Under the pieces are notes generated by a model, which did no database searches, was not told the origin of the DNA, and worked only from the letters and a program-made list of their open reading frames with translations. This document shows, in pieces, positions 54,550 through 57,066 of a DNA stretch of 64,000 nucleotides. The DNA lies in the NCBI GenBank assembly GCA_023475345.1, contig JAMCWD010000040.1, positions 22,137-86,136 of the forward strand. The letters run 5' to 3'. Source of the stretch: Chloroflexota bacterium. Lineage in GTDB: Bacteria; Vulcanimicrobiota; JAMCWD01. The position numbers and the translations under genes were made by a program. The first letter of the stretch is position 1; every line of letters starts with the position of its first letter.

Positions 54550-57066
54550 TTAAAAGGCGGTAAGGAGGAAAAACATCCCGGCCGTCAGCGCCGCCATGAC
54601 CAGGAACGTGCAGATCCTGGGGATGACGGCTGTCCGCCTGTCGCGAAGCAGTATATAAACGGTGCCGAGTACACCCAGGGCAAGCAGGGCCGCCTGGATT
54701 ATAAAAACAAAGTTGAGGCTGACGAGGGGAATAGTCTTGCCGACCGCTCCCAGCAGGTTGAGGTCCACGTTCACCGACCATCCCCCGGCTGGGATGTGGA
54801 GCATGTGAAAAGCAAGGTTTGAGGCAAGGGCGAACGGGATCAGGGAAAGGCCCAGCCTCGTGAAGGTCAGTGAGCTTTCCTCATCACCTGAGAGGCGGGA
54901 CATCAGCCTGAAGATCCCTATGCCTGCCGCGACCACGGCGACGGTTACGAGAATGAAATTAAATCCCGGCACGGGAGTCGGGAAAGAGAAAGCACCGATG
55001 CCGAGTTTTTCCAGCAGGATCAGAAGAGGCGGGACTAAAGCCAGCGCTATGCTGAATGCGGCGGCGCCCGTCATGGGAGAGCGGTATTCGAAGATCTCCT
55101 CGCCCGGCGGTCTCAGGTTAAGCTGGACGGAATTGTTGCCGCACGAGCGGATACATGCCCCGCAGACCTGGCAGGTGAAATTGTCTTCGAGGAACATAGC
55201 GTGATGGAAGACCGGGCACCCGGCGACGCCCGCTCTGCCCTTGAAACATTCATGCCCACGGCAATTTTTAGCACAAACCTCCGGGTTGGCCCGCATTTCC
55301 AGGATGCCGCCCGATGCAAATACCCCCAGCATGCCCCCCAGCGGGCAGACGTACCTGCACCATGTGTTTCGCGAATACAACAGGGCGAATATCGAATACC
55401 CGGCAAGGATCGACAAAAGCAGAATGAAAGTTCCCGTTATACTGTTCTGCATCCCCGTCAGTTCTTCGGCCCATACGATTACGAGATAGCCCCCGAGCGG
55501 GATGTACATATCGAATTTCCTCATCCAGTCCGACGGGTTCCTCCGCCGGACGCCGATTTTCCTGAACAGGCCGCCCATCGTATTAATAGGGCAAATCCCA
55601 CACCAGAAGCGGGCCAGGAGGAACGCGGCGATAATAAGCGCGGGCCACCATACGCCCCAGATCATGCCGAGCGAAAAGCGCCCGGCCGGGCTTCCCGGCA
55701 TGGCGATGCCCGTCAGCAAAAGGGCCAGCAGCCCGAGGAAGAAGACGACGGTCAGGCTTCGCAGGATGTTTATCCCGGCGGGCTTTTCCCAGAAGACCCG
55801 GAACATGTCGAAGCTCAAAAGGTTAAGCCGCCCTTTCCTGGAAACCGGCGTCATGCCGAAGAAGAGGCACTCCGGCTCTATGACGTCCCCATCGCAGAGG
55901 ATCAGCGCTCTTTCCAGCACGGTGTTGAGTTCCCGCAGGTTGTCAACATATTTGTGCGAGAGGAGGACGTTCAGGGCGTCCCGCGATATTTCGGGCCTGG
56001 GGACGTTGTGTTTTTTCGAAAGCTTATCTAGGCTCGAGTTTATGATGTCGGGGAGTTCCCGTCCTCTTTTTGACAGGGACGGGACTTCGACCGATACCTC
56101 CACCAACTCCAGCAGGTCGCCGGAGAATTCGCCTGCTTTCGCCATCTCGTCGAGGTCTTTGCCGCTGACCAGTATCAGCGATGCCGGCAGGGGCGGACTT
56201 TGACCGTTTTTAAATCTTTTTGCAAGCTCGTCCTGGATGGAAAGCGGAAGTCTCTCGGGGTGCTTTACGACAAGTGTCCCGTTTTCCGCAAGGTCGAGGT
56301 AGCCGAACCGGTTTTTTCCATCCCCGTCCCCGAAAAGGATGTTTCCGATCCTATCCGGGTCGTCTCCCGATGCGGTGAAAACAAGGAAATGCTTTTGAGA
56401 ATGAGGGGAATTCCTGTGAACCGTCCTGGCAAGGGCCGCCTTGCCGAGACCCCGCTCGCCCGTTATCAGGCAGCATTTATGGGCAGACGCCTTCTTTATA
56501 AAATCGGCTGCCGCTTCCATTACACGGCTTTTACCGGGATCGAACTCGTCCATGCCGGAGCTTTCTTCGAGGAAACGGGAAAGGACTGCTTTCTTCTCCT
56601 CGGAGTGCCTGACGCTTATGTCGGTGCTTGCAAGCCGTTGTGATAATATCTCGATGAAATGCCGGGACAGGGGCGGGTATCTTTCAAGGATTTCAAGAAG
56701 GGTTTTCTTGGGCAGTTGGACCAGCATCACTTCGCCTTCTGCCCTTACGGTCGCAGTGATGGGGTTGCCGGTGAGGAGGGATATCTCTCCGAATGTTTCG
56801 CCCCGTCCCAGGTGGGCAAGCGTTACAGGGCCGAAGTCCCCCGGCATCTCCACCTTTACCCTGCCGGAGGCTATGAAAAATAGAGATTTTCCGACATCCC
56901 CGTGGCGCAGGATTTCGGAGCCGTCATGATATGTTTGTTCTTCGAAGCCGGATTCGAAATCCGCCAGCAATTCATCCGGCAGCATGGAAAAGATCCCCAT
57001 GTCCCTGATCGTCTCAATAGCAAGCTTCAAGCGCCCTCTTCCCCCCCTCGGAAAGGCCGCAATCAT
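54550..57066 (-). CDS. Fusion protein: cNMP-binding domain + degenerate sigma54-interaction-type AAA+ domain + NapH-like polytopic 4Fe-4S membrane domain
   Basis: cNMP-binding: FFIASGRVKV...LGRGETFGEISLLTG.PITATVRA. AAA+: CLITGERGLGKAALARTVH...VDNLRELNTVLERALIL. Membrane part: FWCGICP and WCRYVCPLGG plus CQVCGACIRSC. The start is uncertain (57066 or ATG 57000). Confidence 0.8.
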   Translation of the reverse strand: MIAAFPRGGRGRLKLAIETIRDMGIFSMLPDELLADFESGFEEQTYHDGSEILRHGDVGKSLFFIASGRVKVEMPGDFGPVTLAHLGRGETFGEISLLTGNPITATVRAEGEVMLVQLPKKTLLEILERYPPLSRHFIEILSQRLASTDISVRHSEEKKAVLSRFLEESSGMDEFDPGKSRVMEAAADFIKKASAHKCCLITGERGLGKAALARTVHRNSPHSQKHFLVFTASGDDPDRIGNILFGDGDGKNRFGYLDLAENGTLVVKHPERLPLSIQDELAKRFKNGQSPPLPASLILVSGKDLDEMAKAGEFSGDLLELVEVSVEVPSLSKRGRELPDIINSSLDKLSKKHNVPRPEISRDALNVLLSHKYVDNLRELNTVLERALILCDGDVIEPECLFFGMTPVSRKGRLNLLSFDMFRVFWEKPAGINILRSLTVVFFLGLLALLLTGIAMPGSPAGRFSLGMIWGVWWPALIIAAFLLARFWCGICPINTMGGLFRKIGVRRRNPSDWMRKFDMYIPLGGYLVIVWAEELTGMQNSITGTFILLLSILAGYSIFALLYSRNTWCRYVCPLGGMLGVFASGGILEMRANPEVCAKNCRGHECFKGRAGVAGCPVFHHAMFLEDNFTCQVCGACIRSCGNNSVQLNLRPPGEEIFEYRSPMTGAAAFSIALALVPPLLILLEKLGIGAFSFPTPVPGFNFILVTVAVVAAGIGIFRLMSRLSGDEESSLTFTRLGLSLIPFALASNLAFHMLHIPAGGWSVNVDLNLLGAVGKTIPLVSLNFVFIIQAALLALGVLGTVYILLRDRRTAVIPRICTFLVMAALTAGMFFLLTAF

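Follow-up and report, generated by a model that had tools for sequence, protein, structure and literature searches.

Bacterial enhancer-binding proteins (bEBPs) are textbook AAA+ machines dedicated to opening sigma54 promoters. Well-described members, such as NtrC1, PspF, ZraR, and FlrC, carry an N-terminal regulatory module on a helical linker, followed by the AAA+ core and its lid. Some bEBP homologues, including Escherichia coli TyrR, Vibrio cholerae VpsR, and Rhodobacter capsulatus NtrC and HupR, are independent of sigma54 and have no working GAFTGA loop, and their central domain serves ligand- or nucleotide-dependent oligomerization rather than sigma54 remodeling. A separate set of described proteins comprises polyferredoxins of the membrane. 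In NapH and MauN (TIGR02163, COG0348), a core of four transmembrane helices bears two Cys-Pro motifs on the cytoplasmic side, and the stretch after it, also cytoplasmic, has eight cysteines in ferredoxin-type motifs. NosR and NirI (and RdhC/PceC-type proteins) combine a polytopic membrane domain that bears CX3CP motifs with iron-sulfur (Fe-S) clusters in the cytoplasm. To our knowledge, the electron path of NapH/NosR/CcoG-type membrane domains is still poorly understood. Here, we describe a gene that joins elements of both sets in one protein. It lies in a 64,000-nucleotide stretch, called the window below, of the 3.25-Mb draft genome of a Chloroflexota bacterium (assembly GCA_023475345.1, contig JAMCWD010000040.1, positions 22,137 to 86,136), and its product combines a cyclic nucleotide monophosphate (cNMP)-binding fold, a degenerate bEBP AAA+ domain, and a NapH-like membrane Fe-S module.

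We found that this fusion belongs to a widespread, uncharacterized family of bEBP-derived integral-membrane proteins in which a variable sensor precedes a degenerate AAA+ core with its lid and a NapH-like module. Judged by sequence, the protein falls outside the bEBPs, NapH, NosR, and the canonical cNMP receptors; it nevertheless clearly stems from a bEBP and a NapH-type protein and shares the cNMP-binding fold. We suggest, with a probability of about 0.55, that the composite is a signal-gated membrane redox effector built on a non-hydrolyzing bEBP scaffold and independent of sigma54. The parts of the gene, which includes an intact open reading frame (ORF), are as follows.

54550..57066, minus strand: large fusion gene, complete coding sequence, 838 residues, intact ORF
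56677..56937, minus strand: cNMP-binding-fold beta-barrel, residues 44-130 (Pfam cNMP_binding, PF00027, 4.5e-19, 68.7 bits)
56536..56676, minus strand: two long linker helices from sensor to AAA+ core, residues ~131-169, from the secondary structure of the AlphaFold2 (AF2) model
56071..56535, minus strand: bEBP-type AAA+ alpha/beta core, residues 178-332
56437..56460, minus strand: retained Walker A motif (P-loop) GERGLGKA, residues 203-210
56260..56277, minus strand: degenerate Walker B motif TLVVKH, residues 264-269, with Lys-His in place of Asp-Glu
55861..56070, minus strand: AAA+ lid, residues 333-402, with a conserved DNLRELNTVLERA motif taken as sensor II
55783..55860, minus strand: short, conserved connector from the lid to the first transmembrane helix, with an N415-L-L motif and an amphipathic helix
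55336..55782, minus strand: NapH-like four-helix membrane core, residues 429-577, with two Cys-Pro motifs
55087..55335, minus strand: ferredoxin-like insert, predicted to be cytoplasmic, residues 578-660, with C598x3C602x4C607x9C617P and C632xxC635xxC638x3C642
54553..55086, minus strand: C-terminal bundle of ~5-6 further transmembrane helices, residues 661-838, weakly conserved and without a Pfam family

Integrity of the gene and extent of the family

The fusion gene is real and is not an artefact of assembly or of a frameshift. The source genome is a draft bin of 71 contigs, 86% complete, and the initial annotation had itself raised the possibility that two or three ORFs had been joined by a frameshift. 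We consider a mis-assembly or frameshift fusion to have next to no chance of being the correct explanation, most decisively because the same continuous architecture, with the same domain order, recurs as single ORFs in 62 full-length relatives from named genomes, including closed chromosomes. In addition, the ORF is identical in the product of a second assembler. Logan contig SRR10267473_310998 (3147 nucleotides, from the assembly of run SRR10267473) matches window positions 54134-57280 base for base, spanning the whole gene and covering both domain junctions, and the protein cluster that holds the fusion also holds an identical 838-residue product from the Logan assembly. Guanine plus cytosine (GC) content is uniformly high across the three parts of the gene (54.5, 55.3, and 58.4%). 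The public gene call places the start at a TTG 12 codons later, giving 826 residues. The 90%-identity cluster of the protein also lists two unrelated 54-56-residue Microbacterium DUF3054 fragments, which looks like a clustering oddity.

Relatives of the fusion were found across many phyla. A word-indexed search with the single sequence matched only the protein itself, and the candidate interpretation of an orphan protein was overturned by an exhaustive HMMER search of 1.84 billion representatives (50%-identity clusters), which returned 340 proteins at E<=1e-30. Among the 150 matches listed, nearly all were 600-1200 residues long, and most covered approximately residues 20-810 at 26-35% identity, with E values from 1e-130 to 1e-65. 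Similarly, a genome scan with the single protein found no relatives, but at least 342 loci emerged when an alignment was used to scan one genome per GTDB species. The carriers belong to mostly anaerobic phyla: Desulfobacterota (Desulfomonile, Desulfobulbales, and the cultured Desulfosediminicola flagellatus), Bacillota (Desulfotruncus alcoholivorax DSM 16058, Thermincola, and Desulfosporosinus), Planctomycetota (Scalindua and Brocadiaceae), Nitrospirota, Acidobacteriota, Armatimonadota, Elusimicrobiota, and Chloroflexota. The architecture is thus common and not a curiosity of the source genome, and its description in the initial annotation as unusual does not hold if it meant rare. The same annotation knew of no characterized example, and our full-text literature searches likewise found no description of the architecture.

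Existing names for these proteins point to transcription. WP_136805463.1, WP_027365004.1, and MBI5569777.1 are called "sigma 54-interacting transcriptional regulator" in RefSeq/GenBank, a label that is probably wrong for this family and that probably inflates inventories of sigma54 regulons in Desulfobacterota, Nitrospirota, Acidobacteriota, anammox Planctomycetota, and others. We examined the anatomy of the family in an alignment of 63 full-length sequences, the window protein and 62 relatives, to which the residue counts below refer.

Domain anatomy

The middle of the protein is an AAA+ domain of the bEBP type. Pfam Sigma54_activat (PF00158) matches residues 179-319 (1.2e-11, 45 bits, cut-off 20.2), and AAA_lid_14 (PF25601) matches residues 333-402 (3.4e-12, 46.4 bits). 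About two dozen NCBIfam bEBP equivalogs match residues ~170-400, all far under their cut-offs. The best sequence match in the PDB is Aquifex NtrC1 (1.4e-21), and VpsR is among the PDB and Foldseek matches. An AF2 model of the full-length protein was confident, with a mean predicted local distance difference test score (pLDDT) of 86.4 and a predicted template modeling score (pTM) of 0.74, and Foldseek superposed its AAA+ part on the cores of NtrC1, PspF, ZraR, and FlrC with a target-normalized template modeling score of ~0.8. The Pfam matches and the superposition remove the doubt, voiced together with the initial annotation, that the middle region might not be AAA+, and Pfam and NCBIfam mapping bore out the three-part composition that it had proposed.

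The residues that bEBPs use for catalysis and for contact with sigma54 are missing from this domain. In alignments to NtrC1 and an NtrC-like bEBP, the Walker B motif is TLVVKH in the fusion versus TVFLDE in the canonical protein, and the GAFTGA loop is deleted, with LFGDGDG-KNRFG (LFGDGDGKNRFG) where the canonical sequence has LFGYEKGAFTGAVNRRIG. The fusion reads FSGDLLELV against the canonical FREDLYYRL, and both arginine fingers are gone. The Walker A sequence GERGLGK and the lid motif NLRELxxxLERA, taken as sensor II, are kept. The C-terminal helix-turn-helix (HTH), common in bEBPs although not universal, is also absent: Pfam HTH_8 had no match in the window protein or in eight relatives scanned full length, was found in the same scan in a canonical neighbor (L019:5575-6999), and the lid of the fusion leads straight into transmembrane helices. 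By sequence criteria, the AAA+ core is hydrolysis-dead, and the fusion is probably not a transcription activator. The initial annotation had reported the TLVVKH motif, the missing loop, and the missing HTH, and had read the core as ATPase-dead and non-transcriptional; all of this was upheld, the last point as probable.

The alignment indicates that this degeneracy is a defining trait of the family and not peculiar to the window gene. An Asp-Glu pair in Walker B occurs in 0/63 sequences; position 268 is Arg in 21, Lys in 14, and Glu in 6, and position 269 is His in 22, Asn in 19, Gly in 13, Asp in 5, and Glu in 1. No arginine is conserved across the family at the finger positions, and GAFTGA survives only as relics (GAFSFS, SFSFA, and AFPFT), which mark the family as descended from true bEBPs. 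The nucleotide-facing elements fared differently in the alignment: G206 of the P-loop is present in 63/63, position 209 is Lys or Arg in 56/63 (46 and 10, respectively), and in the lid motif NxRELxxxxERA, all sequences share N376, and at least 90% share E379 and L380. One branch with a Shimodaira-Hasegawa-like approximate likelihood ratio support (SH-aLRT) of 99 separated the 63 family members from 12 canonical bEBPs in a tree of the AAA+ domains, where the window protein had the longest terminal branch (1.52). Two anammox members from Scalindua (L071:663-3842 and L081:4888-8055) combine cNMP+GAF sensors with ~20-25 extra residues where the GAFTGA loop used to be; the Walker B Asp persists in L081 (LDH), but the catalytic Glu in none.

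Compared with the bEBPs, the fusion shares a homologous core and lid, a regulatory module on a helical linker, and, across the family, a sensor repertoire of REC, GAF, and FHA domains. It differs in lacking GAFTGA, the Walker B Asp-Glu, the arginine fingers, and the HTH, in ending in a ~10-helix membrane Fe-S domain, and in belonging to a separate AAA+ group. The sigma54-independent homologues TyrR, VpsR, NtrC, and HupR are soluble HTH transcription factors, whereas the fusion family is membrane-embedded and has no DNA-binding domain.

The N-terminal sensor has the fold, but not the full binding site, of cNMP receptors. In the AF2 model, the strands of the beta-barrel fall at residues 42-119, and a PDB sequence search matched the N-terminal domain to PKG, PKA-R, and SthK. 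The phosphate-binding cassette, FGEISLLTGNPITATV, includes G93-E94, and this Gly-Glu pair is conserved in the cNMP-fold domains of the family. Thus, the barrel and the Gly-Glu pair are shared with CRP, PKA-R, and the SthK/MloK1 channels. However, the arginine that binds the phosphate in true cNMP binders is replaced by Ile103, and the output of the fusion is not an HTH, a kinase, or a channel. Across the family, position 103 is Arg in only 14/63 sequences and otherwise Ala (11), His (11), Val (7), or other residues. Sensors are also modular: most members have a cNMP-fold domain alone, and others have cNMP+GAF (Scalindua), FHA+GAF, FHA+cNMP, or a HisKA-like domain with REC. Because of the Arg-to-Ile replacement, a cNMP is a doubtful ligand for the window protein, which does not have to bind cAMP or cGMP; the cNMP sensing put forward in the initial annotation is accordingly in question, the more so with a sensor that can be swapped for GAF, FHA, or REC. 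The source genome encodes one class III nucleotide cyclase.

A stand-alone relative of this sensor is encoded elsewhere in the same genome. A 170-residue cNMP-fold protein on contig C71 (28687-29199, plus strand) is 51% identical to fusion residues 17-169, which exceeds the overall identity of any full-length family member (~33% at most). It stops exactly where the AAA+ domain would start and is also without the phosphate-binding Arg (PATA). This pattern suggests that the protein arose by partial duplication or that it was the donor of the domain.

The strongest conservation in the family lies in the membrane module. All 12 of its cysteines (489/492, 570/574, 598/602/607/617, and 632/635/638/642) and the motif WCRY(L/V)CPLG are invariant in 63/63 sequences. 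Also invariant are W470, P475, the C489xxC492 pair, and, except at the bracketed positions, W569-C-R-(Y/H)-(L/V/I)-C-P-L-G577. Hydropathy and the AF2 model place the first four transmembrane helices at residues ~429-455, 460-484, 521-537, and 543-563, followed by a Cys-rich insert of ~100 residues and then five or six more helices. C489xxC492P lies at the end of the second helix, WC570RYVC574PLG follows the fourth, and a conserved W532-x-E534 is near the outer end of the third, with E534 present in 61/63. The initial annotation had described two CxxxCP motifs; the second stands, and the first is instead CxxCP (WCGICP). The eight cysteines of the insert would be enough for two [4Fe-4S] clusters. 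In the C-terminal bundle, we looked for heme ligands and found no conserved His or Cys in the 63 sequences, so a heme role for the bundle is unlikely.

Several lines of evidence place the Fe-S sites at the cytoplasmic face. An even number of transmembrane helices precedes the insert. The mean number of lysines plus arginines, family-wide, is 4.1 before the first helix, 5.5 in the loop between the second and third, and 11.6 in the Fe-S insert, all predicted to be inside, compared with 0.1, 0.4, and 0.5 in the predicted outside loops between the first and second, third and fourth, and fifth and sixth helices, respectively. Since the sensor and AAA+ domain must be cytoplasmic, and given this charge distribution, both Cys-Pro motifs and the eight-cysteine insert are predicted to be cytoplasmic as well, which is the topology reported for NapH. 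The transmembrane prediction proposed with the initial annotation thus yielded ~10 helices with the Fe-S sites on the cytoplasmic side by hydropathy, AF2, and charge.

The NapH-like character of the module, also proposed initially, was supported by a sub-threshold NapH/MauN match and by Fer4_5. NCBIfam NapH/MauN (TIGR02163) matched the C-terminal 428 residues at 4.3e-10 and 39.6 bits versus a cut-off of 213.05, NF007013 scored 32.6 versus 234 bits on the C-terminal part, and the NosR equivalog scored 16 versus 1000 bits. Pfam Fer4_5 gave two stretches in the window protein and matched 64/64 members, with sub-threshold matches to NapH in 59/64 and to NosR in 26/64. The four-helix core, the two Cys-Pro motifs, and the eight-cysteine region resemble NapH/MauN except for the spacing in the first Cys-Pro motif, and the second cluster motif is the canonical CxxCxxCxxxC. 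In contrast to NapH/MauN, the fusion scores far under the cut-off, has CxxCP as its first Cys-Pro motif and Cx3Cx4Cx9CP as its first cluster motif, adds 5-6 C-terminal transmembrane helices and a 400-residue cytoplasmic head, and has no napG or nap operon. It resembles NosR and NirI in its polytopic membrane domain and cytoplasmic Fe-S motifs, but its N-terminus, with sensor and AAA+ domain, is cytoplasmic, its surroundings contain no nos, nir, or rdh genes, and there is no periplasmic flavin mononucleotide (FMN)-binding domain (no Pfam match to FMN_bind). Modeled alone, the membrane domain gave a pLDDT of 89.5 and a pTM of 0.90. Searches of the PDB returned nothing better than an E value of 0.38 by fold and only generic ferredoxin-motif matches by sequence, and we came across no solved structure of a NapH/NosR/CcoG-type membrane domain. 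The domain also occurs on its own, in locus L090 (465 residues) and in ORFs of 430-457 residues in same-phylum relatives.

Proposed function and competing explanations

In the signal-gated effector that we favor, the AAA+ domain would act as a non-hydrolyzing, possibly nucleotide-stabilized oligomerization scaffold, by analogy with the central domain of TyrR. The N-terminal sensor would act along the two linker helices to control how this scaffold assembles, in the manner of NtrC1/DctD-type bEBPs, and the state of assembly would gate or organize the membrane Fe-S module. We take this module to be the probable effector because its 12 cysteines are invariant while the sensors vary. It may carry electrons to or from the cytoplasmic face, exchanging them with the quinone pool or with a partner in the membrane or periplasm, and W532-x-E534 together with P543, conserved residues at the outer membrane face, form a candidate quinol site. 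The protein would then be neither a sigma54 activator nor a transcription factor. A broader and more tentative proposal, which we hold at clearly less than even odds, is that family members are a so far unrecognized class of one-component signal transducers in which inputs of the second-messenger, phospho-threonine, or phospho-aspartate kind control a bEBP-derived pseudo-ATPase ring, and this ring switches membrane electron transfer directly.

If this is correct, the regulatory logic of bEBPs (sensors, linker, and AAA+ ring) has been reused purely as an assembly switch with a non-transcriptional output, and electron flow through the quinone pool of anaerobes would be under post-translational control based on AAA+ assembly. 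The family would also offer a handle on polyferredoxin membrane domains of the NapH/NosR/CcoG type.

Several points weigh against this proposal. Sigma54 is present in 41/50 family-bearing genomes, and in Desulfomonile, a canonical NtrC-type bEBP (REC-AAA-HTH_8) lies directly upstream of the family gene on the same strand at three loci (L019:5575-6999, L024:1826-3253, and L031:5575-7002), which leaves room for a link to regulation by sigma54. Across 80 loci, no operon partner is conserved that would point to a substrate or pathway. The AAA+ domain of the window protein, with its long branch and a weakened Walker A (GLGK, not GTGK), may bind no nucleotide. We infer nucleotide binding, cluster content, electron transfer, and oligomerization from sequence and predicted structure, and the direction of signaling, from sensor to membrane, follows solely from the argument that a variable input and a constant output identify the two ends.

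That direction could be reversed. The Fe-S module would then sense the state of the quinone pool or the redox state, and the dead AAA+ domain would be the output, forming inactive mixed oligomers with true bEBPs or sequestering sigma54 at the membrane and thereby influencing transcription indirectly. The earliest descriptions of NosR and NirI, which are related to the membrane module, cast them as membrane-bound regulators. The source genome encodes two canonical bEBP cores and a divergent homologue of sigma54, and the frequency of sigma54 among carriers and the Desulfomonile arrangement fit this explanation as well. However, the loop through which bEBPs touch sigma54 is absent family-wide, the bEBP neighbor is limited to one closely related genome group, and a classical variable N-terminal input is already present, which makes a second sensor less economical. 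Moreover, one closed 4.66-Mb chromosome that carries a family gene (L023/G051) had no match to Sigma54_DBD, which favors independence from sigma54. We consider reverse signaling unlikely, if still the strongest competitor. In the source genome, the sole Sigma54_DBD match (C19:24908-25297) is weak, at 53 bits in a 364-residue ORF versus ~200 bits in most carriers, and the gene is an rpoN that has either diverged or been truncated.

The sensor and AAA+ domain could alternatively be inert relics on a NapH/CcoG-like membrane oxidoreductase, such as a quinol dehydrogenase or a metal reductase. In favor of this, the membrane module is where most of the conservation lies, the module also exists alone, and the AAA+ domain of the window protein is the most divergent in the tree. 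We think this improbable, and more so than reverse signaling, since the cytoplasmic part has been kept open and foldable in hundreds of lineages with its P-loop, sensor II, lid, and connector retained, and since the exchange of sensors (cNMP, GAF, FHA, and REC) is a signature of a signaling input in active use. Far less probable again is a functional ATPase and sigma54 activator with non-canonical catalytic residues. Sigma54_activat does match above threshold, three relatives carry the corresponding database name, and a conserved acidic residue occupies position 271 (Glu in 33 and Asp in 19). Canonical bEBPs have this residue too (DEIGDM in the aligned NtrC-like protein), which means that it does not stand in for the lost pair, and such an activator would have to work while tethered to the membrane by ~10 helices, with no Asp-Glu pair, arginine fingers, GAFTGA, or HTH, and with all NCBIfam bEBP equivalogs far under their cut-offs. 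A signal-gated effector independent of sigma54 thus remains our preferred explanation.

Genomic context and origin

Two further features flank the fusion gene.

54079..54489, minus strand: gene for a small protein of 136 residues with four hydrophobic segments (by hydropathy), exactly 60 nucleotides downstream of the fusion gene
57120..57148, minus strand: candidate sigma70-like promoter TTGACA-17-TATCCT, ~54 nucleotides upstream of the ATG, a consensus match only

The small four-helix gene was noted at this position in the initial annotation, and we confirmed it. Upstream of the fusion gene, no sigma54-type promoter (TGGCAC-N5-TTGCW) was found within 3 mismatches. A strong promoter-like site at 53961-53989 serves the gene that follows the small ORF, so the fusion and the four-helix gene probably form a two-gene unit and are probably co-transcribed. 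The other neighbors of the fusion gene are a BFN nuclease, a PNP-family phosphorylase, and ORFans, with no nap or mau context.

A survey of homologue neighborhoods for redox partners, as suggested with the initial annotation, found the four-helix gene as a recurrent neighbor in some loci and no general redox partner. Seven other loci, spread over at least four phyla (Elusimicrobiota, Armatimonadota, Planctomycetota, and Thermodesulfobacteriota, plus a Sumerlaeia bin), have a homologue of the small protein next to the family gene. In two Thermodesulfobacteriota/delta-proteobacterial genomes, family genes occur in tandem with the four-helix gene between them (L021:1174-8809 and L040:1597-8616), and these paralogues may form hetero-oligomers. 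An apparent in-frame fusion of the small protein to a family protein in L017 was rejected; the 100 residues between the two look like out-of-frame translation of GC-rich sequence. Other synteny was lineage-specific: one subgroup, comprising 10 loci for the most part labeled Desulfobulbales or delta-proteobacteria, shares hisD, gidB, and prs.

The fusion gene was probably acquired horizontally, given its outlying composition and its absence from relatives. Its GC content is 56.7% (70% at third codon positions), which is at the 99.8th percentile of 2.5-kb segments of the genome (mean 49.2%, standard deviation 3.4), and no full-length homologue was found in 40 same-phylum relatives. The small four-helix gene has a GC content of 47.7%. 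For the genome as a whole, the best named relatives of RpsB are Candidatus Eremiobacterota/Xenobiia, and an early assignment to Planctomycetota, prompted by a weak DUF1559 match, was dropped. Directly upstream and divergent, at window positions 57152-61265, is an AT-richer block of ORFs without Pfam matches (products of 373, 315, and 219 residues), and the fusion gene may thus sit in a variable island. On the other side of the fusion, at window positions 50697-51155, we observed a gene whose product resembles a pseudopilin, with a methylation motif at its N-terminus and a weak match to DUF1559 that stays under the threshold.

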